A stretch of DNA of 64,000 nt from a virus, in the IMG/VR virus record IMGVR_UViG_3300021437_000001, positions 32,001 through 96,000 of that record. One strand, 5' to 3'. How positions within the stretch are numbered: the first letter of the stretch is position 1; each line of letters starts with the position of its first letter. The translations under genes and the position numbers were made by a program. The notes under the pieces were generated by a model, which ran no database searches, was not told where the DNA came from, and was given only the letters and a program-made list of their open reading frames with translations. Below, in pieces: positions 1-61,381 of the stretch.

Positions 1-12
1 GGAGAAATAACA

Positions 13-1698: not shown

Positions 1699-1701
1699 CA
1701 C

Positions 1702-1730: not shown

Positions 1731-1736
1731 AAGTGA

Positions 1737-2036: not shown

Positions 2037-2077
2037 TTACGAATTGGAATTAAGATAAATAAAAATAAGAGGCACTA

Positions 2078-6022: not shown

Positions 6023-6023
6023 T

Positions 6024-7112: not shown

Positions 7113-7155
7113 TCTGCTATAATTAATGTAAAATAAAAGAAAAATGGAGACCTAA

Positions 7156-9861: not shown

Positions 9862-9876
9862 TAAAGGAGCTATAAA

Positions 9877-10242: not shown

Positions 10243-10251
10243 GGTGGGATC

Positions 10252-10905: not shown

Positions 10906-10934
10906 ACTGATCTGCCAAGTGTAGAAACAGTAAG

Positions 10935-10957
10935 AGGGCCGCAAAACGGCCCTTTCT
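10935..10957. terminator. Intrinsic terminator between convergent genes
   Basis: AGGGCCG-CAAAA-CGGCCCT hairpin followed by TTCT, between the tail operon and the helicase stop codon. Confidence 0.65.
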
Positions 10958-12392
10958 ATTTGTAGTCTTTATAAATCTCAGAGCGTTCTCCTGAGTGCTC
11001 TTCTAAATAGCCGCCATCTCGGTCAGTAAAATCGTAGATGACGGCTTTTTGTTTTTTAGGGGCTATGCGAAGTACCCTACCAATATTTTGAATAACTTGC
11101 GAACGAGCTTTACCACCACCAGCCATAATTAGAACTTCAGCACAAGGCAAGTCAACACCCTCCCCTATAACGCTAGTTCCTATTAAGCAGTCCAACGAAC
11201 CCTCTTTAAAATTCTTCATCATTTTAGCTCGAACATCATCTTTCTCTTCACCGTGAATAAACTCGGCCCAAGGAATCAAGGTTTTCAAAGCTTCTCCATG
11301 TTCTTTATACTGAACAAGGATAATCATCTTTTTTTTCTTTTCTTTTTTAGCAATATCGGCTATTACAGAATTACGTTCCTCATTTTCAACTATTCCTTCA
11401 CGATAAACTTTTTGATAGTTTGTTTCTTGAAGCTGCATAGGCATGTCAATAATTTCAAATGTAGGTTTAACCAAAAACCCATCAGCTATCGCCTGTTGTA
11501 CACTATACTCGTGTAGCACTTCACTCAAGACGCCTTCTAACGCTAAGTCAGCGCCGTCATTTCTAAAATTAGTAGCAGTCAATCCGATTCTAAAATACAC
11601 ATGTTTTAAATGCTTCAAGTTAACTTCTTGATAAGTAGTAGCAGCAGAATGGTGAAACTCATCAATAAAAACAGCTCCCACTTCTTTAAATACTTCAGGA
11701 TCTATTTTTATCAAAGCTTGAATATTGCAGATGCTTATTACTTTTTTAAGCTTGACTGTTTTAGTATTTAATACTTCTACAGAACCGCTGCCGAAATATC
11801 TAATCATGACTTCTTCCATCATGTCAGTGATACCTTTGTTAGGAGTAATAATTAAAGTTTTAACTCCAAGCTCCCATATCATTTTAGCCGCAGTCACAGT
11901 TTTACCTGTACCAGTAGGCAATACAACAATACCTCGTCCATCGGTTAAAAGCTTTTTAACGGCTGCTTTTTGATAATAACGAAAATCAGGAAATGGAAGT
12001 TTGTTCATTATCTTTGCAGAATTGCGTTTAGGCTCAATGCGCTTGTCTTCAACAGCCCATTCGATTTGTTGCTCACTCAACCAATCTAAAACTCGAGGCA
12101 ATATTCCAGAAGGAAATTCATTGTCGATAAGTAAAGTTATTTTTCTTTCTTTGTCAAGTTTTTCCGCTTCCTTTGAAAGAAATGCCCGCTGCCGTTTTAA
12201 AGCAACTTGATCCGAACCTAAATTAGTATTTTGCAATAATGTGTTGACACGGCGTAATTGTTTGATTATCTTTTGAAATGAGTATTCAGCCGCTTGATCA
12301 ACATAAGACATTTGGTTTTGAAGAGCAGCATAATCTGCACCTTTTAAACCTAATAGTTGACATGTGGAATTATTCAAAGTAATCTTGACCAT
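10956..12392 (-). CDS. Superfamily 2 DNA helicase (UvsW-like)
   Basis: Walker A PTGTGKT, DEFHH, GLTAT, EGVDLP, QNIGRVLR; likely start ATG 12392 (ORF track extends to 12407). Confidence 0.85.
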   Translation of the reverse strand: MVKITLNNSTCQLLGLKGADYAALQNQMSYVDQAAEYSFQKIIKQLRRVNTLLQNTNLGSDQVALKRQRAFLSKEAEKLDKERKITLLIDNEFPSGILPRVLDWLSEQQIEWAVEDKRIEPKRNSAKIMNKLPFPDFRYYQKAAVKKLLTDGRGIVVLPTGTGKTVTAAKMIWELGVKTLIITPNKGITDMMEEVMIRYFGSGSVEVLNTKTVKLKKVISICNIQALIKIDPEVFKEVGAVFIDEFHHSAATTYQEVNLKHLKHVYFRIGLTATNFRNDGADLALEGVLSEVLHEYSVQQAIADGFLVKPTFEIIDMPMQLQETNYQKVYREGIVENEERNSVIADIAKKEKKKKMIILVQYKEHGEALKTLIPWAEFIHGEEKDDVRAKMMKNFKEGSLDCLIGTSVIGEGVDLPCAEVLIMAGGGKARSQVIQNIGRVLRIAPKKQKAVIYDFTDRDGGYLEEHSGERSEIYKDYK

Positions 12393-12397
12393 GAGTA

Positions 12398-12426
12398 AGT
12401 ATCTCATTATGGAAGGAGAAAATCAA
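12398..12426 (-). promoter_or_regulatory. Putative sigma70-type promoter for the helicase
   Basis: Minus strand TTGATT-N17-GATACT; ATG 12392 starts 6 nt after the -10 box. Confidence 0.45.
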
Positions 12427-12653
12427 TGGAAAGTGACATCAAAGCTAAGGGGTTAGAGTTTTTGTACGGCCAGGTTTCTAAAGGCAATATTCCGCAAATC
12501 AAGAAAGGCATGCTTGAAGATTTGTTGGGTTTTGTAGAAGGTCTAAAGGCCGAAGAACAGGCTCGTCAAATGGCTAGAAGATTTGAACAGATTTCAAAAG
12601 AAGCTGGACAAGATTCTTCGGCAGAGGCGCTAGCAGAAAAACTAACTCGATAA
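12426..12653 (+). CDS. Hypothetical protein
   Basis: 75 aa, AAGGAG RBS; helical-looking, no GroES motif. Confidence 0.55.
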   Translation: MESDIKAKGLEFLYGQVSKGNIPQIKKGMLEDLLGFVEGLKAEEQARQMARRFEQISKEAGQDSSAEALAEKLTR

Positions 12654-12662
12654 GGAAGTCCT

Positions 12663-14312
12663 ATGAGTAAAATAATTCTTAATTCTCACGACACTAAGCA
12701 AAAAGCTTTAGAGACAATTACGGAAATGGCTGCTGCTGTAAAAGCTACACTAGGCCCAGGCGGAAATCCCATCATCCTCCAACGTCAAGGGCAGAATCCA
12801 GACGGTACTCCTATTGGCCCTCTTATAACTAAAGACGGCGTAACAGTTGCCGAATACATCGCTTTTAAAAGTAATGTAAAAGATACAATCGCAAAAGCCA
12901 TTCTTCAAGTTGCAAAAAATACAGTAAATCAAGCTGGTGACGGTACAACTACTGCGGTAGTGCTTGCAGAGGCAATTTACAAAGCGGGCTACCGACACAT
13001 AGAACAAGGCCAGAATTCAATTCAACTTTATGACGAATTGAACGCCATTAAAAATGAAATTATTGCTTCGATCAATAAAGTAAAGAAAGATATTTCCGAA
13101 GAAGAAATTATGGACGTGGCTTTAATTTCTGCCAATGGTGATGCAGAGATTGCCAGTATTGTTCAGCAAGCAATCTTAGCTGTTGGAGAAGATGGACACA
13201 TTGCCCTTGAAGAAGGAGCTTCTCGTGAAACAGAACTCACTCAAATTGAAGGCGCTGTCTATAAGCAAGGTTGGACTTCTTTTGGAGCTGCTGGTTCTCA
13301 TTTAGTTACCGATAAATCTCGAGACTTATGCGTCATGTCAAATCCAGCGATTCTTTTATATGCTGGAAATCTCGACAGTATTCACGATCTTGGTAAAGTT
13401 CTTCAAGGCTTGTATCAAGTTGAGAATGGTCAAGTTAACAACGTAGTTCCTGTTTTAATTATTGCTAACGAAATTTCAGATGACGTCAAAAATTTCATTC
13501 TTGAAAATAGAACCCACAGAGGCTATCCAATTGCCGCTATTAAATCTCCATTTGACGGCTCTCCAAATTCTCGTACTGAGATGTTAGAAGATCTAGCTTG
13601 TCTAGTGGGTGCCCAAGTAGCAGCTAAAGGTATCTTAGAACTTAAGAACGTAACTTCTGAACATTTTGGATCTTGTGACCGAGTTGAAATTTCTCGTAAT
13701 GAGATGACTATCTTTTCTGGTGCTGGCGACGAAGAGGATGTTTTACAACGTGTAACTGACATGAAAAAGTTACTCGCTAGTAAACTTCACGACTTCGATC
13801 AAGAGAATCTGCGTATCCGTATCGGTAAACTCACCGGAGGTATTGCTGTTATCCGTGTAGGCGGAAACTCTGAGCTAGAGATTCTAGAGAAAAAAGACCG
13901 TATTGAAGATGCCCTTTGCGCTGCAAGAGTAGCCATTCAAGATGGCGTCGTAGCTGGTGGAGGTTATACACTGTACCAAATTAGTCAGGAATTAACCTCT
14001 AATTCAACTGCCGCACAGATAATGAAGGAAGCTTTACAAGCGCCTATTAAACAGATTATTACAAACGTAGGCCAAGATGCCAATGTTGTACTAGCTTTGA
14101 TGCCTAAGAAGAAAGGTTATAACGCTAGAACCAAAGAATACGTTGATTTGCTAAAGGCCGGAATTATTGATCCAGCTAAGGTTACGAAGTCGGCATTAGA
14201 GAATGCGGTTAGCATAGCAGGGTTATTGTTAACTACAGGCGGTTCAATTGTAGTAGATGACACTCCCGCTAGCGGAATGCCAAACCCTTTACATGCGCTC
14301 TTTGGAGGCTAA
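12663..14312 (+). CDS. groEL: Phage-encoded chaperonin GroEL-like
   Basis: TLGP, ITKDGVTVA, AGDGTTTAVVLA, GGIAVIRVG, KKDRIEDA, GIIDPAKVTKSALENAVS. Confidence 0.93.
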   Translation: MSKIILNSHDTKQKALETITEMAAAVKATLGPGGNPIILQRQGQNPDGTPIGPLITKDGVTVAEYIAFKSNVKDTIAKAILQVAKNTVNQAGDGTTTAVVLAEAIYKAGYRHIEQGQNSIQLYDELNAIKNEIIASINKVKKDISEEEIMDVALISANGDAEIASIVQQAILAVGEDGHIALEEGASRETELTQIEGAVYKQGWTSFGAAGSHLVTDKSRDLCVMSNPAILLYAGNLDSIHDLGKVLQGLYQVENGQVNNVVPVLIIANEISDDVKNFILENRTHRGYPIAAIKSPFDGSPNSRTEMLEDLACLVGAQVAAKGILELKNVTSEHFGSCDRVEISRNEMTIFSGAGDEEDVLQRVTDMKKLLASKLHDFDQENLRIRIGKLTGGIAVIRVGGNSELEILEKKDRIEDALCAARVAIQDGVVAGGGYTLYQISQELTSNSTAAQIMKEALQAPIKQIITNVGQDANVVLALMPKKKGYNARTKEYVDLLKAGIIDPAKVTKSALENAVSIAGLLLTTGGSIVVDDTPASGMPNPLHALFGG

Positions 14313-15455
14313 GTGGCTAAAGAAAAGAAAAAGTGGAATCCTAACGCCGTATGGCTCAGTTACTCAGGGGCAAGCTCCTTTAAAGCCTGTCCTGAGAAGT
14401 TTTACTTGAGCAAAGAATGGCAAGCCAAGGGTAACTTTAGTTACTTTGTATTTGGTTCTGCCGTGGAGTGTGGTGTTACTTCTGCTTTGATTGATCGAGA
14501 CCGAGAGAAGATGTTGGCCGCTTTTGAAAAGAATTGGAAAGCAGAACACGCCGATGATCCTGAGAAGTCTAAACCAATATTTGATAATTGGACTATTGAG
14601 TATTCAGCAGGTGACGTGGATATTGATCTAGTTGAAGGCGAAGACATTCGTTTAGATCAATGGGTTACTGAGCTATTTAACGATGTAACTCAGACATGGA
14701 AGCCTAAGATCTTTGAGATTTTTGCAAAGATCAAAGAAAAGAAGAAACTTGACGAGAACGAAGATAAGTTTTACAAACGAGTTGCCTGGCTTTCCATGAA
14801 GAAAAAGGGTGAGTACATGCTCAATTCCTTTTTTGACACGAAGCTTAAAGACATTAAAGGTTTGGTAGAGCTTGACGGTAAACCAGCAGCACAATTGCGT
14901 ATTGATATTCCTTCGGAAGATGGAGACAATATCGTAGGTTATGTCGATTATATTGTGGAGTTAAATGACGGCACAGTTGTGATCTTAGATTGTAAAACTG
15001 CTGCTGCGGCTTATGACGATCATAAATTACTAACTTCGGAACAATTAAAAACGTATGCTGCGGCTTTGTCGTCTAAGTTTGACGAAGTTCCAGAGATAGG
15101 TTATCTTGTTTTAGTAAAGAAATTGAATACTGAAAAATCTTGTACAAGCTGTGGAGCTTTGCGAGAGAATTCGAAATTAAAAAATTGTGTATCTTGTGGC
15201 GAAGGTAAATACGAGTCGGCGTCATATTCAGCAGAAGTGCAAATGATGCACCGACCAATTGATGATGAAGAAATGGACGATCAGCTTGAAGACTATTCTC
15301 AAATAGCTGATGCGGTGAGAAACAAAATCAGATATAAAAATCCTGAGAATTGTTTTTCGTTTGGTCGAAGATGTGAGTTTTACGATCATTGCCATAAAGG
15401 TAAAAGTTTAGATAAATTAACAACAGTTGAACCAAAGAAAAAAGGAGGCCGCTAA
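14313..15455 (+). CDS. PD-(D/E)XK exonuclease (RecB/Cas4-like family)
   Basis: LSYSG...CP N-terminal motif, GYVD...LDCKT catalytic motif, QLxxY, C-terminal Cys cluster and an inserted CxxC-CxxC. Confidence 0.8.
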   Translation: MAKEKKKWNPNAVWLSYSGASSFKACPEKFYLSKEWQAKGNFSYFVFGSAVECGVTSALIDRDREKMLAAFEKNWKAEHADDPEKSKPIFDNWTIEYSAGDVDIDLVEGEDIRLDQWVTELFNDVTQTWKPKIFEIFAKIKEKKKLDENEDKFYKRVAWLSMKKKGEYMLNSFFDTKLKDIKGLVELDGKPAAQLRIDIPSEDGDNIVGYVDYIVELNDGTVVILDCKTAAAAYDDHKLLTSEQLKTYAAALSSKFDEVPEIGYLVLVKKLNTEKSCTSCGALRENSKLKNCVSCGEGKYESASYSAEVQMMHRPIDDEEMDDQLEDYSQIADAVRNKIRYKNPENCFSFGRRCEFYDHCHKGKSLDKLTTVEPKKKGGR

Positions 15456-15997
15456 TGGCTAAGGGAAGATTACCAGATGGTTATAGGGGCGTAGATTTAA
15501 TTATAAAAGAATTTCGAATCAAAAACCCCAAAGGTAAAGTGGAGACAACTCCGGTTTTAATGGGTGATGGTTATGTAATCATTACTGCAAAAATTACCAC
15601 TGACGATGGTGCAGTTGGTAGCGGTATGGCTGATGCCGACGTGCAAGAAGATAAATCAGTTGAGAAAGCTGAGTCTGGTGCAATTCGACGAGCTTTACTA
15701 ACTCTTGGATATGAATCCATTGCCGTTGACGAAGATCAAGAAGAATCTTCTAAACGTAAAGAAGAAGAACCAAAAGAAGAGAAAAAGTCTTTCAAACGTT
15801 CTGAACCAGCTAAGAAAGTTGAAGAATCTGACGACGAGCAGGATGAAGACGAAGAAAAAAAACCTAAATCTCGCTTTGGCAACAAAGGTTTGAAACGCCA
15901 AGCCGACGAGAAAGATTCTGAAAACGACGATGACGAAGAGTCTCAAGAAGAAGGTAAGTCTAAATTTACCAGAGGTTCTCGTTTTCAACGAGGTTAA
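15455..15997 (+). CDS. Putative single-strand annealing protein (Rad52/Sak-like) with charged disordered tail
   Basis: VEKAESGAIRRAL motif; directly follows the exonuclease, as in exo/SSAP pairs. Confidence 0.55.
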   Translation: MAKGRLPDGYRGVDLIIKEFRIKNPKGKVETTPVLMGDGYVIITAKITTDDGAVGSGMADADVQEDKSVEKAESGAIRRALLTLGYESIAVDEDQEESSKRKEEEPKEEKKSFKRSEPAKKVEESDDEQDEDEEKKPKSRFGNKGLKRQADEKDSENDDDEESQEEGKSKFTRGSRFQRG

Positions 15998-15999
15998 AA

Positions 16000-16278
16000 A
16001 TGGTAGACATCGTAATCTTGAAATATCCAAATCGTAAACTTTATGACCGAACTAACAGCGTATATGTTACAGGTTCTAAAATTCTCGAAATGATACGTTC
16101 AGGAAAAAAGATTCAGATTGTTGAAAGTAAATCGGGGAAAGTTATTACTGGTTTAATTTTGGCTCAAGCTTTGCTTGACGAAAGTGAAAATCAGTTTTAT
16201 AGTCAAGAGAGTGTGACCGTCTTGGAAAGAATAATTCGAGATGGAAACTTTGAAACATTTAGTAAAAAACTTCTATAG
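16000..16278 (+). CDS. PhaR-like (PHB accumulation regulator N-terminal) DNA-binding protein
   Basis: ILKYPNRKLYDRTNSVYVT...G..IT..IL matches the PhaR N-terminal signature. Confidence 0.8.
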   Translation: MVDIVILKYPNRKLYDRTNSVYVTGSKILEMIRSGKKIQIVESKSGKVITGLILAQALLDESENQFYSQESVTVLERIIRDGNFETFSKKLL

Positions 16279-29108: not shown

Positions 29109-30740
29109 GTGTCAGAAAAAGGCACCTTTGACGTATTTTCTAACAAGTTCGCACAAGATATTTTTCTTCAAAAATACAGTATGAATGGAACAGAGACCTG
29201 GGCTGATACCTGTGAAAGGGTTGTAAATGCCGTGTGTGGTCAGCTTTTGGACGCTAAGACCAAAGCTAAAATTTTAAAATTTATGAAAGAACGTAAGTTT
29301 ATTCCAGGCGGACGATATTTATATTCTGCTGGACGTTCATTTCATCAGGTTAACAATTGTTTTTTATTCAGGGCAGAAGACACTCGAGAGGGTTGGGCTG
29401 ACTTGATGGGTAAAGCTAGTTCTGCTTTACTAACTGGTGGCGGAATAGGCGTGGATTACACGGCCATTCGCTACAAAGGCGCTCCAATTAAGCGTACTGG
29501 CGGGTTTTGCACAGGTCCTATTTCTTTGATGGAAATGGTGAATGAAGCGGGCCGTCATGTAATGCAAGGTGGACAAAGGCGTTCAGCTATTTGGGCAGGT
29601 CTGCAATGGGACCATAAAGACATAAACGAATTCATTCATCTGAAAGATCATAATGCCGATCTTAAAGCTATGAAAGAAAAAGATTTTAATTTTAGATTGC
29701 CTATGGAATTTACAAATATCTCTGTGATATACGACACAAATTTCTTTATCGCAATTGAAGATGAAAGTCATCCAGATCATGCTAAAGCCAAAGCTGTATG
29801 GTTAGATAACTGTCGTCAAGCTTTCTCAACGGCTGAGCCTGGTATGGCATTTAATTTCAGAAAAGATGCTGAATCATTAAGAAATGCTTGTACAGAAGTT
29901 ACATCTGAAGAAGACTCTGATAAATGTAATTTAGGTACTGTATGGATGAATCGCTGTAAAGATAGAGAGGAATTTGCGGAAGTTTGCAAATTTGGAACTT
30001 TATTTTTGCTATGCGGTGGAATTTATTCTGATGTTCCAACTGAAAAAATTAAAGAAGTTGGTTTAAAAAATAACCGCATTGGGTTAGGGCTTGGCGGAAT
30101 GCACGAATGGCTGATGCTGCGTGGCTCAAAGTACGAATGTACTCCAGAGCTTCATAAATGGCTGGCTACCTACGAACGAGAATCTGACTCAGCCGCCTTT
30201 GTCGGCGCTAAGCAACTCGGAGTAGCTGTGCCTAAAGGTGTTAGAGCGATTGCTCCAACTGGGACGATAGGTATTATTGCAGAAACTACTACCGGAATTG
30301 AGCCGTTATTTTGTAAAAGCTACAAACGTCGATACTACAAAGAGGGTAAATGGATGCACCAATATGTCGTAGATGGTGCTGTAAAACGTCTACTAGCTTT
30401 GGGTGTAAAACTCGAAGATATTCAAGACTCGTATGACATCTCTTTTAAAGAGCGTGTTAAGTTTCAAGCAGATGTTCAGCAATACGTTGATATGTCTATT
30501 TCATCTACTTGCAATATGGCTTCTTGGGGTTCGGAAGAGAACAACGAATCTACACTTGAGAAAAATGCTATGGTACTATTAAAGTACGCCAAGCGCCTTC
30601 GAGGATTTACCGTATATCCAGATGGGTGTCGTGGTGGACAGCCTTTAACTCGAGCTGATCTTGAAGAGGCTATGGCTTCTGAAGGAAAAGTGTTTGAAGA
30701 AAAGGAAACCGAATGCGTAGGTGGAGTATGTGGAATTTAA
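29109..30740 (+). CDS. nrdJ: Ribonucleotide reductase, class II-like (compact)
   Basis: PGGRYL, NNCF, GGGIG, RRSA, RNACTE, CNLG, IAPTGTI, TTGIEP, C-terminal CVGGVC; no adjacent beta-subunit gene. Confidence 0.8.
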   Translation: MSEKGTFDVFSNKFAQDIFLQKYSMNGTETWADTCERVVNAVCGQLLDAKTKAKILKFMKERKFIPGGRYLYSAGRSFHQVNNCFLFRAEDTREGWADLMGKASSALLTGGGIGVDYTAIRYKGAPIKRTGGFCTGPISLMEMVNEAGRHVMQGGQRRSAIWAGLQWDHKDINEFIHLKDHNADLKAMKEKDFNFRLPMEFTNISVIYDTNFFIAIEDESHPDHAKAKAVWLDNCRQAFSTAEPGMAFNFRKDAESLRNACTEVTSEEDSDKCNLGTVWMNRCKDREEFAEVCKFGTLFLLCGGIYSDVPTEKIKEVGLKNNRIGLGLGGMHEWLMLRGSKYECTPELHKWLATYERESDSAAFVGAKQLGVAVPKGVRAIAPTGTIGIIAETTTGIEPLFCKSYKRRYYKEGKWMHQYVVDGAVKRLLALGVKLEDIQDSYDISFKERVKFQADVQQYVDMSISSTCNMASWGSEENNESTLEKNAMVLLKYAKRLRGFTVYPDGCRGGQPLTRADLEEAMASEGKVFEEKETECVGGVCGI

Positions 30741-31934: not shown

Positions 31935-32101
31935 TGATTTGCGGTAGTGGTGGAACTGATAAGGACTTTGATTGTTACGATTACTATGTAAATTGTACAG
32001 TCAACCTTAAACCAGAACCAACGCTAAAAGAATTTGAAATTTGTAAACGAAATGAAAAATCAGGAATTAAACGGATAGAGAAACTAAAGGATACAAAATG
32101 A
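31901..32101 (+). CDS. Small Cys-containing exported hypothetical protein
   Basis: Hydrophobic N-terminus, several Cys; ATGA coupling to the next gene. Confidence 0.45.
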   Translation: MSTAAIATTILMICGSGGTDKDFDCYDYYVNCTVNLKPEPTLKEFEICKRNEKSGIKRIEKLKDTK

Positions 32102-32394
32102 GCGATCAACTAAACACAGGACTACTTCCTATCGGGGCAGTCAAAATTCCAGCGGTGGCTCCAGTTAAACCAGTTGCCGAAAAGCCTAAATTACGAGGGC
32201 TTACGGCTACACACGTCATCGTTGACGAAGTAGAAATCCTAACACTCGCACAAGTCGAACAAGCTCAGATCGAGAAAGTTCTAGCAATCCTTGGCAACAA
32301 CAAAGCCAAAGCTGCGAATGCTCTAGGAATTACTGTTAAAACACTTTATAACAAACTTCATGACTATGGTTTGTTTGAGAAGTACAAGGCTTAA
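32098..32394 (+). CDS. Stand-alone Fis/NtrC-type HTH_8 DNA-binding protein
   Basis: LTLAQVEQAQIEKVLAILGNNKAKAANALGITVKTLYNKLHDYG is the C-terminal HTH signature of sigma54 enhancer-binding proteins; no AAA+ or receiver domain. Confidence 0.85.
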   Translation: MSDQLNTGLLPIGAVKIPAVAPVKPVAEKPKLRGLTATHVIVDEVEILTLAQVEQAQIEKVLAILGNNKAKAANALGITVKTLYNKLHDYGLFEKYKA

Positions 32395-54344: not shown

Positions 54345-55118
54345 GTCTTTTTTAATAAATTTTTGTATATCGTCCATTGATATAAGTCCCATAGGTGCCA
54401 AGCCATTATTTACACTCTTCAATTCAAAAAAGAAGTCTGGCTGTTCACCGAAGGCTTTAAATTCAAAACCGACTTGCGTCACATGGCCCACGGGTTTAGT
54501 CAAAAAATAAGCGGCATCATACCAAGACCGCAAGTCTGAACTGCCTCGGATATTGTCTGCGGCATTCTTAGACTTTGACGTCTTATTGTGATGCACAAGC
54601 ATGATCGCCGTGCCACTGTCCCGCTGTAAGTGTCTCAATTTGGTAAGTATCTTACTCATTTGAGACGTGCTACCTTCGGCAGTGTTCGGAATGAGACGCA
54701 CCAATGGGTCCATAATGATAAGCAATGGCCTCTCTTCAGTCACTTGCTTTCGCAATGCCTCAAAATGCTCATCGTTATCTAGTGCGAAGTTTTGCCCTGC
54801 CACGATTGACACGTTTTGTCGTAGGTCTCGCATTGAGGCTTGTTTTGCTCTGCAAATTTGCTCTAGACGTTCTTTGATAATTGCACCGCTATCCTCGCCT
54901 TGTATCATCATGACTCTGCCTTGTTTCAATACGTTATACATTCCAAAACATTTTTCACCTGTGGCAATACTGACCAACAATTCACCAGCAAGCCAAGACT
55001 TTCTCGTTTTGGGATCACCTGCCACAAGACACGTTGACGACTCTGGTAGTAGTCTCTCAATGAGCCATGATGTGTTGCCTTTATCATCTAGTTGATCAAT
55101 TGATTCAAACTTAAACAT
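54342..55118 (-). CDS. RecA-fold ATPase (AAA_25 / RepA helicase-like)
   Basis: WLIE.LLP, GDPKTRKS, QGED, IMDPL, LVHH, RGSS. Confidence 0.8.
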   Translation of the reverse strand: MFKFESIDQLDDKGNTSWLIERLLPESSTCLVAGDPKTRKSWLAGELLVSIATGEKCFGMYNVLKQGRVMMIQGEDSGAIIKERLEQICRAKQASMRDLRQNVSIVAGQNFALDNDEHFEALRKQVTEERPLLIIMDPLVRLIPNTAEGSTSQMSKILTKLRHLQRDSGTAIMLVHHNKTSKSKNAADNIRGSSDLRSWYDAAYFLTKPVGHVTQVGFEFKAFGEQPDFFFELKSVNNGLAPMGLISMDDIQKFIKKD

Positions 55119-55142
55119 TTGGCCCTTGCCTTTCTCCTATCC

Positions 55143-55170
55143 TTATCGGTAGGTATATTGAAAAACTTTA
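55143..55170 (-). promoter_or_regulatory. sigma28 (FliA)-type promoter
   Basis: TAAAGTTT-N12-ACCGATAA. Confidence 0.65.
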
Positions 55171-55207
55171 GCAAAATAGTCAACTATTACAATAAAAAAA
55201 TGTCTAC

Positions 55208-55429
55208 CTAGTTGAACTGAGACGTCTCAGGTAGATACATTTCATTGAGTTGATCAAGTAAAATGCTAGCGTACACCTCGGGTGTATTGATATGAGACGG
55301 TAGGTTCGTGATTAGTACCACGAACCCAGACGCCTCGAGTGTTTCAATCCAGGACATTGCCTCATCATCTAATTCATTGACAAGACGTTCTGCTGTAGCA
55401 TATTGAGATTTACCTTTGATTAGTATCAT
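55208..55429 (-). CDS. Hypothetical early-region protein
   Basis: GGAG RBS, ATG at about 55429 (MILIKG...). Confidence 0.5.
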   Translation of the reverse strand: MILIKGKSQYATAERLVNELDDEAMSWIETLEASGFVVLITNLPSHINTPEVYASILLDQLNEMYLPETSQFN

Positions 55430-55620
55430 TTTGACTCCAATTTTTGGTTTATTAATTCTTGCAATCCTCGTGCCGATACCATTAATGAATGAATTTCTAA
55501 CATTAAGACGCCACAAACTAACGGCATATCAGATTGATTCAAGTGGCCGTGTCTCTCCATTTGAGACACTAATGCCTTGAGTTTGTTTGCTCTGTCAATC
55601 ATAAACTGAACCTGTTCCAT
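55426..55620 (-). CDS. Hypothetical early-region protein
   Basis: AGGAG RBS, coupled ORF. Confidence 0.5.
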   Translation of the reverse strand: MEQVQFMIDRANKLKALVSQMERHGHLNQSDMPLVCGVLMLEIHSLMVSARGLQELINQKLESK

Positions 55621-55922
55621 TATGAGACTCCTAGGAATTTGTAGCGTTTTGTTACGACGTGTACTGTATTAAATTGAGACGTGTTGACTATTTCTCCAGT
55701 CTCGACGTTCAATAGTTCAAAACTTGAGTCTGAAATCAGTACCTCAGTGACGTCTTGACTTAGTCGGTAGCATCCTATCTTTTTGCCCTCTGAGTACTTG
55801 CGGACCCATGCGGTAGCATCGGCGAAAGTGTCAAGCGGTGTCGATAAGTCTCGACCGTTTTGCGTGACCATGTACCAAGACCGTTGACCAAGGGTATGTC
55901 TTAAAATGAAACACTTATCCAT
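55620..55922 (-). CDS. Hypothetical early-region protein
   Basis: Coupled ORF, 100 aa. Confidence 0.55.
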   Translation of the reverse strand: MDKCFILRHTLGQRSWYMVTQNGRDLSTPLDTFADATAWVRKYSEGKKIGCYRLSQDVTEVLISDSSFELLNVETGEIVNTSQFNTVHVVTKRYKFLGVS

Positions 55923-56145
55923 TTGACACCTTCTTGTTTCGTTTTGATACAGGTAGGTTTCGAGACTCTTTCAAGGCTTGCTGCGCATCTTGAATCATGC
56001 TTTCGACTGCGGTCAATGTAACTTTTGCGCCGTGAGCCTTAACAACGGCTAGCAAAACTTGTGCCAAATTCATTATTAACACCGTGTCCTCATTGAAGAC
56101 AGGATTAGGTTGTTTCAATTTGATAACTTTCGCATTCTGTTCCAT
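55915..56145 (-). CDS. Hypothetical early-region protein
   Basis: AAAGGAG RBS, first gene after a sigma28-type promoter. Confidence 0.6.
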   Translation of the reverse strand: MEQNAKVIKLKQPNPVFNEDTVLIMNLAQVLLAVVKAHGAKVTLTAVESMIQDAQQALKESRNLPVSKRNKKVSNG

Positions 56146-56177
56146 TTTGATACTCCTTTGTTTAGTGTTCGTTTTTC

Positions 56178-56205
56178 TTATCGGACGATTGAGTCAAAAA
56201 CTTAA
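56178..56205 (-). promoter_or_regulatory. sigma28 (FliA)-type promoter (variant)
   Basis: TTAAGTTT-N12-TCCGATAA. Confidence 0.55.
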
Positions 56206-56224
56206 GAACTATTTTTGTCTCAAA

Positions 56225-56827
56225 TTAGCACGCTCCCCAGCCAGCAAGCATCGTCTCAAATTGAGACTCTTTTTTGATTGCTTTTTCACGTTCAATTTTT
56301 ATTTTTGCGTCAAGTTTTGCCTTGACCGTTGCAATTTTTGTCTTGAGGCTTGCAATCCTTTTTTGCAAGCCTTGCGGTCTCAAGTCACCTTGACAGACTG
56401 GACATTTTGCGGACTGATAGACTTTCAAGGCAAGCAATCGAGACTTGCAAGCGCCGCAAGTGTGAAAGGCTTTCGACCGTGTCAACGGCTTGCTTTCAAG
56501 GTCACGCAATTGCGTCGATAGCGCCTTGACTCGGTCTTGCAATTTTGACAGTGACTTGCTTTCGATAGTCACCTCACAAAAATAAACAGCCACAACGGTG
56601 TCCCATTTTGAGGCATTTTTCAAACAAAAATCATGTGCCTCATTATAAGACGTAAAGACTTGATCAAGTCTATAGTCTACTTTTGAGACAGTTTGAAAGT
56701 CGCCGCTATAACCGTCTTGATGTCCATTTTCGAGACGGTCTTGATCTTGTTTTGACTTAAATAGATCATAAATCTCATTTCGAGACAACTTTCCTTTTCT
56801 AGTTGTCTCAATATTACACGCTCCCAT
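56225..56827 (-). CDS. Hypothetical protein with zinc finger flanked by coiled coils
   Basis: CGAC...CPVC; AAAAGGAG RBS. Confidence 0.65.
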   Translation of the reverse strand: MGACNIETTRKGKLSRNEIYDLFKSKQDQDRLENGHQDGYSGDFQTVSKVDYRLDQVFTSYNEAHDFCLKNASKWDTVVAVYFCEVTIESKSLSKLQDRVKALSTQLRDLESKPLTRSKAFHTCGACKSRLLALKVYQSAKCPVCQGDLRPQGLQKRIASLKTKIATVKAKLDAKIKIEREKAIKKESQFETMLAGWGAC

Positions 56828-56869
56828 TTGACACGCTCCTTTTTGATACGTTGTTTAGTAGACGTCACG

Positions 56870-56901
56870 AAAAAGGCCCCATCTCAAAATGAGACAGGGC
56901 C
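56870..56901 (-). terminator. Intrinsic terminator built on the palindrome motif
   Basis: Minus strand GGCCCTGTCTCA-TTT-TGAGATGGGGCC-TTTTT (12-bp stem with G-U pairs). Confidence 0.75.
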
Positions 56902-56909
56902 ACAAAGGA

Positions 56910-57392
56910 TTACACCGCCTCATCCTGAGACGTTTTTCGGACATTTGGTTGTATTGAATTGGGAATCTGTATTCTTTTGAGACCAGTTATTTTGCGTGCC
57001 AAAATGAGACCATCATTCCAGTCGTCTTGACGTCCGTCGCTTGCGACGTCGATAAGATCACCTAGACGATGTTTCAAAATGATAAGGCAAGCGGTCACGA
57101 CTGTATCATACGGATACATATTCGTTTTGCAAAAATCTGACTCATTTTGAGACAAGTGCTCTCGCATAACGAAGTCCTCACATGAGCCGACTCGTTCTGA
57201 GCCATTCACTTTGAGACCACCATAGAGTTTTGGCTCACAATGAGCCGAAAATCCAGCGAGACCGCCAAACGTCTCAGAATAATACCGTATCGTTTTGGCA
57301 CATTCATAAATCGCTTTTTGATACGCTGCCTCAGATTGAGTCGCTTTGCCTTTCGGCGCTTTTTTGAAAGTCCAGTAATGCGTATATCCCAT
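56910..57392 (-). CDS. Conserved-type phage hypothetical protein
   Basis: MGYTHYW N-terminus and FCKT..PYD..VTACL...SDG pattern; AAAGGAG RBS. Confidence 0.7.
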   Translation of the reverse strand: MGYTHYWTFKKAPKGKATQSEAAYQKAIYECAKTIRYYSETFGGLAGFSAHCEPKLYGGLKVNGSERVGSCEDFVMREHLSQNESDFCKTNMYPYDTVVTACLIILKHRLGDLIDVASDGRQDDWNDGLILARKITGLKRIQIPNSIQPNVRKTSQDEAV

Positions 57393-57459
57393 TTTGATAC
57401 TCCTTTGTTTTGAGACCGTCGTCTTGACAAGTCTCGGTTTTGTTTTGCTGTCTTATCTC

Positions 57460-57486
57460 TTATCGGTCACTTTTTTAAAAACTTGA
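57460..57486 (-). promoter_or_regulatory. sigma28 (FliA)-type promoter
   Basis: TCAAGTTT-N11-ACCGATAA. Confidence 0.7.
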
Positions 57487-57512
57487 GGCTTTCAGTCAAC
57501 TTTTTTAAAAAA

Positions 57513-57800
57513 TCACGCCGCTTTAAATTGATTCAATATGTCCCAATCTGAGACAGTTTCATTGGTATCGTCCCAAACTAAGACAGTACGTCCAGCGTGA
57601 CCGTGCAATAGGATAGCGTCAACCCATGTCTCAAATTGAGTCACTGAATTGATCTTGCGAGTCGAGCCGTCCGCAAGTTTTGCGTCAACGGTCCAGCGGA
57701 CTTGCGTCAAGCCTTGCGCATTGACTTGACCGCTTGCAACGTGTCCAGTGCCCGACGTGCCTGTCAAGTCTTGCAATCGTATCAACTTAAATGTTCTCAT
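57513..57800 (-). CDS. Conserved-type phage hypothetical protein
   Basis: MRTFKLIR..D.TGTSGTG.VA.G...VRW...HGH.G.T..VW; AAAGGAG RBS before ATG 57800. Confidence 0.7.
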   Translation of the reverse strand: MRTFKLIRLQDLTGTSGTGHVASGQVNAQGLTQVRWTVDAKLADGSTRKINSVTQFETWVDAILLHGHAGRTVLVWDDTNETVSDWDILNQFKAA

Positions 57801-57886
57801 TTTGAGACTCCTTTGTTTACGTCTTGCGTCAATATTGACAGACGACGTCAAAACAGTCAAGTAAAAAATACAGTCTCATTTTGAGA

Positions 57887-58084
57887 CTAAAGACCGTACC
57901 ATGTCAAACTGAGACGGTCTTGATTTTCATTCAATCGGTCAAGTTCAAGGTCTGTCAAGTCTTGCAACGTGTCAAGATAGCTTGCGGACTGGACAAAAAA
58001 GCCGTCGCCGTCCAGTGACTCGACGCAAGCCTCAATTTTTCGACCGTCAACGGTCAAAACAAGATCTTTTTTGCGTTGTCTCAT
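57887..58084 (-). CDS. Hypothetical early-region protein
   Basis: 65 aa acidic ORF after the Gp88-like gene. Confidence 0.5.
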   Translation of the reverse strand: MRQRKKDLVLTVDGRKIEACVESLDGDGFFVQSASYLDTLQDLTDLELDRLNENQDRLSLTWYGL

Positions 58085-58085
58085 A

Positions 58086-58754
58086 TTAAGCCACCTTATC
58101 CCACGTCGTGTTTTGATAGTTTTTTGCGCCGTGATAGACTAGACCGATTTTGTTTTGCTTGCCTTGCGCCGCTATCAAGTCGTCTTGCGTGCTGTCAACG
58201 TAGCCAGCCGCTTGCAATGCCTCTAGACTTTCAAACACTTTCGAGTGAAAGTCTGTCTCAATTTGAATCAAGTCGTCTTGTTTGCCACCGAAGGAAAAAA
58301 TGACTCGGAATGAGACAGGCAAGTTTTTATAGGACTGTATCATTTTGACCATTTTTGAATAGGCATAAAATGAGACACGTTTTTCTGTCTCAAAATGGCG
58401 CATGATTGCAATCCATTTTTCAAAATATTCAAGGCTGTAAAAATCACCCGCATCATGAATTCTCACTTTGAGATTTTCAACGCTTCTCTTTTTGAGCCAT
58501 GTCTCAATTTCGGAAATCATTGCAGGGACAAAATTCTCACTTTGAGACAGTTCAAGTTTTGCATTATGAGCCGATACGGACGACTTGAAACGATACGTTC
58601 CAGATCGAGCGTAGCATCCTGAGACGCATGCGCTTGCCATTGGGCACGTCTTGAAACCTGTCTCAGATTGAAACGCTGGCAAGGTCCAGTTAACGACCGT
58701 TGTCCCACTTTGAGACGACTTTTTCATTTTTGCATTTTGAGTTAACAATATCAT
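58086..58754 (-). CDS. Gp88-like protein (Cys-cluster, radical-SAM-like fold)
   Basis: N.KM.K, TCP.AS.C...CYA..G, VRIHDAGDFYS..Y, FYAYSK. Confidence 0.75.
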   Translation of the reverse strand: MILLTQNAKMKKSSQSGTTVVNWTLPAFQSETGFKTCPMASACVSGCYARSGTYRFKSSVSAHNAKLELSQSENFVPAMISEIETWLKKRSVENLKVRIHDAGDFYSLEYFEKWIAIMRHFETEKRVSFYAYSKMVKMIQSYKNLPVSFRVIFSFGGKQDDLIQIETDFHSKVFESLEALQAAGYVDSTQDDLIAAQGKQNKIGLVYHGAKNYQNTTWDKVA

Positions 58755-58801
58755 TTTGATACTCCTTTGTTTTGCAAGCCGTCTTGACTTGCTTGACTAT
58801 C

Positions 58802-58828
58802 TTATCGGTCACTTTTTTAAAAACTTGA
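58802..58828 (-). promoter_or_regulatory. sigma28 (FliA)-type promoter
   Basis: TCAAGTTT-N11-ACCGATAA, identical to 57460-57486. Confidence 0.7.
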
Positions 58829-58848
58829 GGCCTTTTTTGCAAAAAAAT

Positions 58849-58883
58849 AAAAAAAGAGGCCGTATCAGATTGATACAGCCCCT
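58849..58883 (-). terminator. Intrinsic terminator built on the palindrome motif
   Basis: Minus strand AGGGGCTGTATCA-ATC-TGATACGGCCTCT followed by a T run. Confidence 0.75.
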
Positions 58884-58895
58884 ATTCGTCTCAAA

Positions 58896-59684
58896 TTAAG
58901 CCGCTTTGATCAATTGAGTCGCAGCGTCCCATATTGAGGCGTTCAAGTCGATAGCTTTCACGCTTTCAGTCTTGATTTTGCGTGCTGTCATGTTGCGGAC
59001 GTTTTGCACGCCGTTCTCATCTTGAGACACTGTTTGGTATCTCAATCCGAAACGAATAATGTTCTCTTGTATCACATTGAGACAACTAAACAAGTCATTT
59101 TTTGCGTCGTCTTGACGTCGGACTTTCAGCAAGTCCGCAATCTCAATCTTGACAACGTTGTCAATGCCTTGCAATCGGATTGACGCAACGTCTTGCGCAA
59201 GCTTGATCAACTCACTCGGTGACACGTCACGGGCTTGCATCATTTTGACCGTATCAACTAAAGACTCACGTTGAGCAACTAGTCTCGGAATGAGACTGTC
59301 AAGTTCTTGATACGGATTGCCTAAGTGTTTCACTTTGATTGTCTCAAAATGAGTCCCAACGTTCAATTGGTTGGCGCAAGTCCCACGGAAAAGACCTAAA
59401 ACGCCTTGAAGTGAGCCGTATAAATGTGGGACTTTAAAAATGATGTCAAAACCGAGGCCGTCAATTGCAAAACCGTCTCTTGATCGGTATCTTGCAACGG
59501 TCGTTTGAAAGTCTTGACGGTCTGGACTTTTTGCCTTGCCTGTCTTAAGATGAACTAGGTCAAAACCGTGACTGTCTAGGACTTCAGCTATCAATGCGGG
59601 CTTGATAGCTTGAAAGCGGTCTGATTTTGAAACGTGTTTTTGATCTTGCACGAAGCTAGTTGAAACTGTGTTATTTTGAGACAT
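58896..59684 (-). CDS. DUF932/DUF945-family protein
   Basis: SDRF..I.......L...GF, GLFR..C.N, LL..RR..D...DL....NVIQEN.I, LN..IW; AAAGGAAG RBS before ATG 59684. Confidence 0.75.
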   Translation of the reverse strand: MSQNNTVSTSFVQDQKHVSKSDRFQAIKPALIAEVLDSHGFDLVHLKTGKAKSPDRQDFQTTVARYRSRDGFAIDGLGFDIIFKVPHLYGSLQGVLGLFRGTCANQLNVGTHFETIKVKHLGNPYQELDSLIPRLVAQRESLVDTVKMMQARDVSPSELIKLAQDVASIRLQGIDNVVKIEIADLLKVRRQDDAKNDLFSCLNVIQENIIRFGLRYQTVSQDENGVQNVRNMTARKIKTESVKAIDLNASIWDAATQLIKAA

Positions 59685-59736
59685 TTTGCACTTCCTTTGT
59701 TTTAACGGTCGCATCATTGCGCCGTCGATAGTTAAC

Positions 59737-59763
59737 TTATCGGTGACTTTTTAAAAAACTTGA
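59737..59763 (-). promoter_or_regulatory. sigma28 (FliA)-type promoter
   Basis: TCAAGTTT-N11-ACCGATAA. Confidence 0.7.
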
Positions 59764-59920
59764 GGCCTTTTTTAAAAAAAACTTATCTTTTTTGCATCGA
59801 CTCGACAACTGTCTTAATTTGAGCCGTTGTCGGTATTGACACCATCAAGCACGCCGCCCCATAAAGATACAGTCCTAAAATGAGACTAAAAGCTATTAAC
59901 TGTTTCATATTGAGATTCTC

Positions 59921-60070
59921 CTATTGTTTAGTATTTAAGTCAAGTATATTCTCATCTTGAGACGAAAAAGACTCGACCGCTAAGTATCCCAATATGAGAC
60001 ACCAAGCTGTTGTGTATCCATTTGAGCCGAAAGTCAAGTAAACAAAAATAAGCAATGAAAACTGTTTCAT
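59921..60070 (-). CDS. Small hydrophobic peptide
   Basis: MKQFSLLIFVYL..., AAAAGGGG RBS-like before ATG 60070. Confidence 0.4.
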   Translation of the reverse strand: MKQFSLLIFVYLTFGSNGYTTAWCLILGYLAVESFSSQDENILDLNTKQ

Positions 60071-60086
60071 ATTGATACGCCCCTTT

Positions 60087-60356
60087 TTATTCAAAATCAG
60101 ATAAGTCAAAACCCATTGAGTCAACGGCTTGCAAGACAGGCGTCTCAAAATGAGACTCATATAGACTTATCAAGTCTTGACCTAGGTCTTGCACGGCTTG
60201 ACTTTTTGACGCTTGCATTGCACGCAAGGCTTTCGACTTATAACTCATGTCACCACCCATGCAACGGTCAAGCTGTCTCAAAGTGAGATGCTCAACGATT
60301 TCTGTCCAGATTTGAGACATTTGAGCTTGAACTTGACGATTTTTGTCTTGTCTCAT
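60087..60356 (-). CDS. Hypothetical early-region protein
   Basis: 89 aa, AAAGG upstream. Confidence 0.55.
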   Translation of the reverse strand: MRQDKNRQVQAQMSQIWTEIVEHLTLRQLDRCMGGDMSYKSKALRAMQASKSQAVQDLGQDLISLYESHFETPVLQAVDSMGFDLSDFE

Positions 60357-60357
60357 A

Positions 60358-60519
60358 TTAAGCCGCCTTTCTCAAAACGATACATACGGTTGGATTGTTC
60401 TCAAATTGAGCCTGTTGCTTTTTGATACGTTTTGGCTTGCTTGCGCCCTCGGCGTGTCCAGCCTTAAGTTTTGTCAAAATCACGTTTTTTTGTCCAGCTA
60501 TCAGTTTAGGTTGTCTCAT
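60358..60519 (-). CDS. Small basic protein (not in ORF track), first gene after the sigma54-type promoter
   Basis: ATG 60519 to TAA 60358, 53 aa MRQPKLIAGQKNVILTKLKAGH...LRKAA; GAAAGG RBS. Confidence 0.5.
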   Translation of the reverse strand: MRQPKLIAGQKNVILTKLKAGHAEGASKPKRIKKQQAQFENNPTVCIVLRKAA

Positions 60520-60556
60520 TTTGAAGCCTTTCGTTTCGGGTTGATACTTAACTATC

Positions 60557-60574
60557 TTGCACGCCGCATGCCAA
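60557..60574 (-). promoter_or_regulatory. sigma54 (RpoN)-type -24/-12 promoter
   Basis: Minus strand TTGGCATGCGGCGTGCAA: GG-N10-GC spacing; predicted start about 60547, roughly 28 nt before ATG 60519. Confidence 0.6.
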
Positions 60575-60832
60575 CGTAAACACCTGAATTCACTTAAGTC
60601 TCAATCTGAGAAAGCGTCGATCTTTTAGTCAATCCAGCCCCTAAACCCTAAACCCCAGCAAAACCCACTACTTAAGGCCTGTCAATCTTATATACAAGAG
60701 TGACAGTTTTTGTCAAGTATCTCATATTGGTACACTGCCACGTTTTCACCTATATATAGAAAAACAACATAATCCCATAGTGAGACATATACACTTATTA
60801 AGGTCTATCTAGTCAAGGTCAAGTCTAGACCT

Positions 60833-60986
60833 AGGTCAACGGATAGCGTGACGATAGGTCAAGGCCTTGAGATAGTATTGCGGCAAGGTCAACGGATAGC
60901 AAGACAGAAAGGATTGAAATCTCAATATGAGACATGAATGGGTGTGAGTGTGTTGGAATGAGACAATCAGCGGATAGCAAGACAGA
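60833..60986 (+). repeat. Short direct repeats in the long non-coding region
   Basis: AGGTCAACGGATAGC at 60833 and 60886; CGGATAGCAAGACAGA at 60893 and 60971. Confidence 0.7.
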
Positions 60987-61381
60987 CGACCGTTGTCAAG
61001 CGTCAAAAAACTATCTAGTCGAGCGCAAAGCGTTTCAATTTGAGAATCTATGCGAAAATAAAAAAGAAAAAAGAAAGCGTCTCAAAATGAGACTCTGACG
61101 ATAATGTATATTATCATCACGTTTCAAAATGAGAATCCTCAATGAATACGGGGGGATAGCTGCGTTGCAGTGCCGAGGCCCTATGCTTGTGCCTAGTAGT
61201 CTCTCACAATTTTTTTAGCATTATATTAGTTGACGCACTGCGTTAAGCCTACAGTTTGCCAGACAGTTGATTTCCAGAAACGAAAATCCTGATTGAAAAT
61301 TTTATTTTTTGAGTGTGTAATAAGTTCTTGATTAGATTGCTAGTTTTTGTATTTTTTACACTTATAAATGACGCATTGCAT

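Follow-up and report, generated by a model that had tools for sequence, protein, structure and literature searches.

A phage-encoded stand-alone HTH_8 protein, very probably derived from a host sigma-54 activator, and its candidate palindromic target sites

The record of a freshwater phage studied here (G000) comprises 117,954 bp, has direct terminal repeats and a GC content of 39%. Bases 32001-96000 of this record form the window, i.e. the whole stretch of 64,000 nucleotides that was analysed, and the positions given for G000 are those of the window. The stretch is contained in two DNA sequencing runs, one of which may be where it came from. In the GenBank phage collection we found no match for 10 kb of DNA (megablast) or for the 98-aa protein that is the subject of our study (tblastn), and PHROGs holds no family for this HTH protein. 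At its gene the following features are located:

32098..32394 (stop included), plus strand: gene encoding the 98-aa stand-alone HTH_8 protein (ORF, Pfam HTH_8, 23 near-length homologues)
32098..32241, plus strand: N-terminal 48 residues, opening with the conserved MSDQ-LP-G-V-I, after which comes a variable linker rich in Pro/Val/Lys (alignment A1)
32242..32367, plus strand: HTH_8 domain, residues 49-90, three helices (Pfam and structural model), recognition helix within LGITVKTLYNKLH

The ORF runs from ATG to TAA. Its start codon overlaps the TGA of the preceding ORF (ATGA), and the sequence AAGGA sits 8 nt 5' of the ATG. The gene is present as a single copy in the G000 genome and is the last one of a long plus-strand replication/nucleotide module. 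Members of this module located 5' of it on the same strand encode a helicase, a GroEL-like chaperonin and a PD-(D/E)XK nuclease; further same-strand genes 5' encode a DnaB-type primase-helicase, DNA polymerase A, a dNMP kinase, RecA, a RuvC-like protein and a class II RNR. This fits the replication-phase operon to which an earlier reading of the sequence alone (the sequence-only reading) had assigned the gene. On the 3' side, open frames are read from their translations alone as putative dUTPase and large terminase genes, and a small-terminase-like protein is encoded there, too.

Residues 49-90 match the HTH_8 family of Pfam (PF02954, 'Bacterial regulatory protein, Fis family') with an E-value of 4.9e-11 and 42.6 bits (cut-off 22). 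The match spans profile positions 1-42 of 42, i.e. the full model, and lies over the gathering threshold. The only other Pfam row obtained for the protein in a scan with E-values up to 1 was HTH_50, which stayed under its cut-off. The AAA+ domain Sigma54_activat (PF00158) with its sigma-54-contacting loop, required of an NtrC-family activator, is missing from these 98 residues, which contain HTH_8 only, and a search of the entire 117,954-bp genome for PF00158 was negative. The protein is thus not a member of the enhancer-binding proteins but only a derivative of one of their domains. The sequence-only reading had described it accordingly as a Pro-rich leader (a fair term, with 5 Pro in residues 1-30) followed by a stand-alone HTH of the enhancer-binding protein type lacking AAA+. 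It had also quoted the peptide GNNKAKAANALGITVKTLYNKLHDYG, which is found in the ORF, and what it reported as seen proved correct in every particular.

In the AlphaFold model (23-row alignment) three helices are predicted, comprising residues 50-64, 69-76 and 80-90, with a pLDDT of about 90. Residues 1-49 have no secondary structure in the model, and the N-terminus has a block-mean pLDDT of 51-59. The best structural match is the DNA-binding domain of NtrC1 (4l5e; rmsd 0.5 A over 45 columns, TM 0.95, target-normalised), the other top structural neighbours being ZraR and Fis. Owing to the small size of the domain, Foldseek gave weak E-values only (0.019). The sequence profile gave matches to 4l5e (4.8e-9), ZraR (6e-8) and Fis (2e-4). 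The modelled three-helix fold is superimposable on solved HTH_8 domains. With the DNA-binding domains of NtrC-family proteins (Aquifex NtrC1, 4l5e; ZraR, 1ojl) the phage protein shares the Pfam family and the three-helix fold at an rmsd of 0.5-1.0 A. Unlike the activators of this family, it stands alone, is encoded by a virus and possesses a conserved N-terminal peptide not seen in them. Homodimer modelling with two copies (alignment A1) yielded a score of 0.34 compared to a mark of 0.42 and to 0.00 in the controls, which speaks neither for nor against a dimer.

Fis of E. coli resembles the phage protein in its length of 98 aa and its C-terminal HTH_8, and the profile alignment (E 2e-4) spans Fis residues 14-97. 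In the HMM alignment to 1fip, however, a Val of the phage protein is placed at Fis Arg85 (GITVKTL vs GINRGTL), which we take to be the residue reading the G at +-7. The Fis monomer consists of four helices with an N-terminal beta-hairpin arm and dimerises through helices A and B. In contrast, the phage protein is predicted to have three helices and a disordered N-terminus, so that the model does not show the fold of Fis.

A search for proteins of similar length retained 23 of 36 candidates, all of them containing PF02954 (44-66% identity) and several located on contigs of 98-118 kb. The members of this family share the MSDQ-LP-G-V-I start, a variable linker, the HTH and a YGLFEKY tail (alignment A1), and the N-terminal MSDQ-LP-G motif is kept in 18 of the 23. 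A search for longer proteins retained 13 of 316 candidates. All 13 combine Sigma54_activat (PF00158) with HTH_8 (PF02954), 11 also contain GAF, and two are named Bacteriovoracaceae. The C-termini read LGITVKTLYNKLHSYGL in the activators and LGITVKTLYNKLHDYGL in the phage protein. Each of five host-family genomes contains exactly one close match to residues 44-95 (E 9e-12 to 2e-11, 53-62% identity), located in a frame of 499-520 aa, the next best match having an E-value of 5.7e-6 or worse in each of the five. This GAF activator was found at 52 loci with 48-81% identity to P0030; their titles name Bacteriovoracaceae, Halobacteriovoraceae, Bacteriovorax, Peredibacter or Bdellovibrionota. The closest host enhancer-binding protein, which the sequence-only reading had proposed to look for, therefore exists: a protein of about 500 aa with GAF, Sigma54_activat and HTH_8, conserved in the Bacteriovoracaceae, which has the same recognition helix (LGITVKTLYNKLH-YGL) as the phage protein.

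We consider it very probable that the phage protein is an enhancer-binding domain that stems from a host activator and has become detached from it. Its HTH_8 domain would have been captured from the conserved GAF-type activator of the Bacteriovoracaceae or would share a recent common ancestor with it. Since the protein looks like the detached tail of one host-family activator, these predatory bacteria are the probable host family of the phage.

The candidate target of the protein and the sigma-54-like motifs nearby lie further along the window:

55052..61135, no strand: carpet of the 15-bp palindrome GTCTCA-N3-TGAGAC, candidate target, 59 sites with up to 2 mismatches
55460..55475, minus strand: sigma-54-like CGGCAC-N5-TTGCA, 1 mismatch, in the carpet
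56051..56066, minus strand: perfect -24/-12 match TGGCAC-N5-TTGCT, in the carpet, inside a 76-aa ORF (55915-56145)
60558..60573, minus strand: sigma-54-like TGGCAT-N5-GTGCA, 2 mismatches, 5' of a 53-aa ORF (60358-60519)

The palindrome array named in the sequence-only reading is real. With up to 1 mismatch there are 21 sites compared to 0.11 expected, all at 56253-61093; with up to 2 mismatches the genome contains 75 sites, 59 of them within about 6.1 kb. The 3-bp spacing is specific, other spacings yielding 3-7 sites instead of 75. The carpet runs through real genes, as shown by the Pfam matches to GP88 (2e-37) and DUF932 (1.3e-11). According to the PWM, the site has a length of 15 bp, the form G-N13-C and an A/T centre, and C is present at +-3 in 87% of the phage sites. 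In one metatranscriptome we detected three contigs of 151-165 nt at 57200-58255, contigs from an RNA library being no proof of transcription.

A scan of IMG/VR for a full site with a half-site after it gave at least 119 loci. Among the matches listed were two further true carpets. G029 has 46 sites vs 1-8 at other spacings, 43 of them in its first 10.8 kb, and G050 has 52 sites vs 3-12, 50 of them in 10.7 kb. Of 97 double-mismatch sites in the three carpets, just 2 show compensatory changes, indicating that the constraint acts on the DNA sequence and not on a hairpin. We thus rejected the idea that the palindrome acts as a hairpin or RNA structure; the non-compensatory mismatches fit a protein site. 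Most of the multi-site IMG/VR loci are 21-22-bp tandem iteron arrays of unrelated phages (GC 39-75%) that have no sigma-54 motifs, and 23 of the 24 records checked among the matches listed have no HTH_8. We judged the iteron arrays to be a different phenomenon involving the same 15-mer, although strictly they are still palindrome clusters without the HTH gene.

The sequence-only reading had also pointed to a sigma-54 promoter at 60573 on the minus strand. Taken alone this motif is weak, because matches with up to 2 mismatches occur 29 times genome-wide vs about 10 times in shuffles. When we scanned for TGGCAC-N5-TTGCW with up to 1 mismatch, sigma-54 -24/-12 motifs were enriched in all three carpets. 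In G000, 2 of 5 motifs lie inside the carpet (5.8 kb), 1 of them perfect vs 0.0055 in shuffles. In G029 the carpet (first 16 kb) contains 18 of 23 motifs with 6 perfect ones vs 0.011, and in G050 it contains 10 of 20 (8.8 kb) with 2 perfect ones vs 0.0055. Host genomes contain only 6-12 perfect motifs per 2.4-4 Mb. The perfect G000 motif at 56051-56066 is located within an ORF and qualifies as a candidate promoter only. The orientation of the motifs in the carpets is mixed, those of G050 being mostly antisense to the genes. To our knowledge, no bacterial transcription system other than that of sigma-54 uses distant enhancers and an ATP-driven activator. Neither an AAA+ activator nor sigma-54 was found in G000, G050, G029, G001 and G003; any such transcription would consequently depend on host factors.

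For a comparison of gene and palindrome across phages, sites with up to 2 mismatches at the 3-bp spacing were counted and set against other spacings or a reversed control; the genomes sampled are few, and phylogeny does not allow them to be treated as independent. The phages came from a search with the HTH protein (G001 to G005), from 20 records found through the portal protein and from the IMG/VR scan. All four enriched near-complete phages (G000, G001, G003 and G050) possess an HTH_8 homologue. G001 (16 sites vs 1-7 at other spacings) and G003 (17 vs 0-3) are enriched although they have no carpet. Among the 20 portal-found records only these two contain the HTH gene, and a clear excess over the reversed control was detected only in them, in G027 (11 vs 1) and in G028 (13 vs 4). 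Ten relatives of at least 81% completeness have no HTH gene, and none of them has more than 6 sites or is enriched; only G018 (3 vs 1) and G020 (5 vs 0) top their controls. Among these ten are the two complete genomes most closely related to G000, i.e. G011 (1 site vs 1, with a portal of 60% identity) and G012 (2 vs 4). Two records are uninformative on the co-occurrence, since the G027 fragment starts 2.5 kb beyond the expected position of the HTH gene and the carpet record G029 ends at a RuvC-like gene about 3.5 kb before it. In the complete G050, a gene for a 68-aa HTH_8 protein (profile E 1e-12) is located at a distance of 1.2 kb from an RNR sharing 73% identity with that of G000; this HTH_8 homologue is only 40% identical, lacks the N-terminal extension and has a different helix (GVSVKTVYNKLD).

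The co-occurrence across related phages, suggested as a check by the sequence-only reading, mostly favours a link between gene and palindrome, on account of the four enriched near-complete phages and the ten unenriched relatives without the gene. Both constellations that it had named as contrary evidence were observed as well, each in one phage. G002 (96% complete) has a homologue with the helix GITIKTLYNKLH but only 1 site vs 1 in the reversed control. G028, a 47% fragment with 13 sites vs 1-6 at other spacings, keeps the conserved neighbour gene and has a different ORF in the syntenic slot of the HTH gene, and is thus a genuine exception unless the gene is in the missing half. G004 (6 sites vs 4 in the reversed control) and G005 (12 vs 6) are not clearly enriched; the 'homologue' of G004 is a 303-aa AAA+ plus HTH_8 protein, that of G005 a Zn-ribbon fusion.

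From these data the 98-aa protein emerges as the best candidate for a reader of the carpet, and we hold it about as probable as not that it does read the palindrome. It would be a small sequence-specific DNA-binding protein, consisting as it does of the HTH_8 enhancer-binding domain of a sigma-54 activator and of nothing else of the activator. Most likely, a dimer would bind the 15-bp GTCTCA-N3-TGAGAC; other HTH_8 domains bind as dimers. This palindrome carpets a block of about 6 kb of accessory genes that also has sigma-54-type promoter motifs. As the protein has no AAA+ motor, it could not remodel the sigma-54 polymerase, and its effect would be one of occupancy. It might block or coat the carpet sites once its replication module is expressed. 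To the specific shut-off of early phage genes and a host regulon, which had been proposed for it before, we assign a smaller share of probability than to the reading of the carpet as such. Against a reader role stand the unenriched G002, the enrichment of G028 with another ORF at the slot, and the different helix of G050. Furthermore, the helix is shared with the host activator, yet the phage-type palindrome occurs in host genomes at control level only (see below).

Alternatively it might be that the protein is unrelated to the carpet and serves as a general Fis-like architectural protein or regulates a small number of sites elsewhere, the palindromes being read by the host GAF activator or by a protein encoded in the carpet itself. 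We regard this as rather unlikely. It is favoured by the behaviour of the genes DUF932, GP88 and the G000_88910 homologue, which are 61-68% identical among G000, G029 and G050, whereas these genomes otherwise average 35-39%; the carpet is thus a mobile module with which these genes travel. G002 and G028 can be cited in its support, too, as can the precedent of NinH of phage lambda, a phage Fis-like nucleoid protein of loose specificity (PMC7166090, accessible text). On the other hand, sites with precisely the 3-bp spacing are in excess in G001 and G003, which have none of the carpet genes. Of the 311 ORFs of G000, 15 have tblastn matches in G001, G003 and G050, and among these 15 the HTH gene is the only one missing from both G011 and G012, so that it alone tracks the enrichment in a profile that took ORFs of at least 60 aa and leaves room for smaller ORFs and host factors. 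In addition, the DUF932 orthologue of G012 (42% identical) contains 1 site compared to 7, 11 and 3 in the carpet phages, indicating that the sites are not a property of the carpet genes. Finally, there is no sign in the host genomes that the phage-type site is used.

In the text of PMC7166090 accessible to us, NinH is called the first phage-encoded Fis-like nucleoid-associated protein. Reportedly it forms homodimers, binding and bending DNA with a preference for sites of 15 bp and the form G-N13-C, and the site of Fis is given as 15 bp with an A/T centre. The protein described here is likewise a small phage protein with a Fis-type HTH, and its candidate palindrome is a 15-bp G-N13-C sequence, too. 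This agreement in site geometry with Fis and NinH speaks for a reader role of the protein. NinH belongs to PF06322 according to the same text, whereas the 98-aa protein matches HTH_8 and HTH_50 only (Pfam, E up to 1). The NinH motif is degenerate and the accessible text describes no site array for it; in our phage the carpet contains 59 copies of a sharp candidate site.

The sequence-only reading had further assumed matching host enhancers, through which a host regulon would be shut off. For the phage-type site this finds no support, as there is no enrichment in 155 host-family genomes. In five host genomes the palindrome occurs at control level (2-9 sites vs 1-12), the matches lying mostly in ORFs with no convincing sigma-54 promoter alongside, and the same applies to 151 host-family genomes with regard to number (0-15 vs 0-16). 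Within 400 bp 5' of 25 perfect host sigma-54 promoters it is absent. The neighbourhood of the activator gene (53 loci, 850 kb) contains 3 palindrome matches with up to 1 mismatch vs 0 and 2 in the controls, and no conserved sigma-54 promoter was found beside the activator gene at 52 loci. An apparent enrichment in G007 (38 vs 9; W-rich spacer, up to 2 mismatches) was discarded. Wrong spacings were raised there as well (21 vs 10; 31 vs 22), 12 of 15 inspected matches lie inside genes, and two small clusters have no convincing sigma-54 promoters. This excess is treated as an effect of composition, not as a regulon.

Instead, a related palindrome, GTCTAA-N3-TTAGAC, is over-represented in intergenic regions of the host. 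Perfect copies number 11 in G006, 5 in G008 and 9 in G009. Fourteen of 15 inspected copies are intergenic, most of them about 100 nt from a gene start, and a copy lies between -85 and +65 at 5 of the 25 perfect host sigma-54 promoters. No excess was detected in G007 (6 vs 5) and G010 (12 vs 17). The host palindrome differs from that of the phage only at +-3 (A in the host, C in the phage), and the host form is not carried by the phages. GTCTAA-N3-TTAGAC may be the natural site of the GAF activator, and a shared ancestry of the host and phage palindrome codes is plausible. The identical helices raise the question why the phage sites have C and not A at +-3: if the same helix implied the same specificity, the host form would be expected to be the one preferred by the phage protein.

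These host sites open the possibility that the host chromosome is the main target. The phage protein would then act as a dominant-negative competitor at the enhancers of the GAF activator and turn off a host sigma-54 regulon, the carpet being incidental. The identical recognition helix, the near-identical host palindrome, its intergenic location and its proximity to host sigma-54 promoters are all compatible with this explanation. We nevertheless think it very unlikely, because the host palindrome is only putatively that of this activator, two host genomes show no excess, and the tracking of the phage-type palindrome by the gene across phages is left unexplained.

As a further alternative to a protein that merely occupies the carpet, the HTH-only protein might use its dimerisation helix to pair with the host GAF activator at the DNA-binding domain of the latter, or recruit this activator in another way. 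The host AAA+ motor would thereby be brought to enhancers private to the phage, and the sigma-54 promoters of the carpet would be switched on, not off. Such an adaptor would account for dense sigma-54 motifs in phages that have no AAA+ activator or sigma-54 of their own, yet it is an improbable solution: the contact between the two proteins is purely hypothetical, and the mixed, in G050 mostly antisense, orientation of the motifs fits simple activation badly. The difference at +-3 would be in line with it, since a code of its own would require the phage to have a reader of its own. The MSDQ-LP-G motif could be a docking peptide, but the G050 homologue has no N-terminal extension.

A wider picture, which we regard as doubtful, is that of a mobile viral enhancer system. 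It would comprise more than 50 private enhancers, many sigma-54 motifs on both strands and a detached HTH copied from the host that reads a code one base-pair per half-site off that of the host. By competing or pairing with the host activator, this HTH might decide when the host sigma-54 machinery fires on the phage block or is trapped by it.

In our literature searches we found no described phage that uses or subverts sigma-54 via its DNA-binding end, and nothing relevant on Bacteriovorax phages or dominant-negative enhancer-binding domains. NinH and Htm come nearest. Htm (Gp204) of Mosigvirus AV110, a T4-like coliphage, is presented in the accessible part of bioRxiv 10.64898/2026.10.06.757011 as a relative of enhancer-binding proteins with a proposed action on host sigma-54 transcription. 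According to the same source it has an AAA+-like body without the C-terminal HTH and the GAFTGA loop and is reported to bind ssDNA. As far as this source goes, Htm is the complementary piece to the HTH-only protein of our study, both being phage relatives of enhancer-binding proteins. Phage Fis-like proteins and a phage AAA+ fragment are therefore known already; in our searches we found no description of an enhancer-binding HTH that stands alone and follows a sharp palindrome and sigma-54 motif clusters across mosaic phages.

In the mosaic phages of these little-studied predatory bacteria, the tracking of a sharp palindrome by a domain-only derivative of a host activator provides a directly testable pair of protein and site. 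If binding were confirmed, this would be a case of a virus turning a host regulator into the source of a private operator code, in parallel to Fis, whose origin from NtrC has been proposed (as noted in PMC7166090). As members of the same gene families are found both with palindrome sites and without them, a natural experiment is available, too. The candidate target sequence for the 98-aa protein is GTCTCAAAATGAGAC, with GTCTAAATTTTAGAC as the comparison sequence.

The palindrome carpet of phage G000 (a dense cluster of GTCTCA-N3-TGAGAC sites, window 55052-61135) also occurs in two further phages, G029 and G050:

L279 / G029 1-16000, same carpet as in G000, dense sigma-54 motifs on both strands
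G050 137400-146200, same carpet as in G000, dense sigma-54 motifs on both strands

The accessory genes under both carpets are orthologous to those under the G000 carpet. Perfect matches to the sigma-54 -24/-12 consensus (TGGCAC-N5-TTGCW) number 6 in the G029 carpet and 2 in that of G050, with about 0.01 expected. One gene was compared with its orthologues for palindrome sites:

58896-59717 (-), DUF932 gene

It carries 7 sites in G000, and the orthologues carry 11 (G029), 3 (G050) and 1 (G012, a relative without the HTH gene). Some sites share alignment columns (34, 179, 191, 220, 268) and others are lineage-specific, a pattern of aligned sequences which indicates that sites are gained and lost inside this conserved gene.

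Within the G000 carpet, a perfect sigma-54 consensus (56066-56051) falls in the coding sequence of a small ORF:

55915-56145 (-), 76-aa ORF, strong ribosome-binding site (AAGGAG)

In a freshwater metatranscriptome library, three contigs of just 151-165 nt agree with window 57200-58255 without a single difference, only a weak hint that the carpet is transcribed.

In genomes of the probable host family, Bacteriovoracaceae (G006, G008, G009), a related palindrome, GTCTAA-N3-TTAGAC, is over-represented (e.g. L215, L220, L407, L398, L399). Its copies are nearly all intergenic; they usually precede a gene start by about 100 nt and sometimes adjoin a predicted sigma-54 promoter.

G004, a 64-kb fragment classed as virus, encodes both an activator domain and an HTH_8:

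L005 9236-10144 / L372 (G004:C1:3171-3644), 303-aa AAA+ Sigma54_activat plus HTH_8 protein (Sigma54_activat E 1.8e-43)

This protein has no sensor domain at its N-terminus; the recognition helix, GITIKTLYNKLH, is of the same type as in the HTH-gene protein (32098-32394, +). The gene could encode an activator carried by the phage, or else the fragment may include flanking host DNA.

Unrelated phages (GC 39-75%) carry 4-9 tandem copies of GTCTCA-N3-TGAGAC at a 21-22-bp period, an arrangement resembling iterons (L274, L252, L280, L296, L310 and about 30 others, among the matches listed). The tandem-array phage records checked among these matches yielded no HTH_8 gene.

Near the HTH gene lies a further gene shared with G050:

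29109-30740 (+), class II RNR (G050 159084-160712)

The two RNRs are 73% identical, against an average of about 35% for proteins shared by G000 and G050, which suggests, from protein identity, a second exchanged module beside the HTH gene.

Inside the replication module of the phage sits a chaperonin gene:

12663-14312 (+), GroEL-type chaperonin (Cpn60_TCP1, E 5e-51)

The palindrome-enriched fragment G028 (L198-L200) and the enriched phage G003, which has the HTH gene, are syntenic with about 58% mean protein identity, and their GC contents (52% vs 36%) lie 16 points apart.
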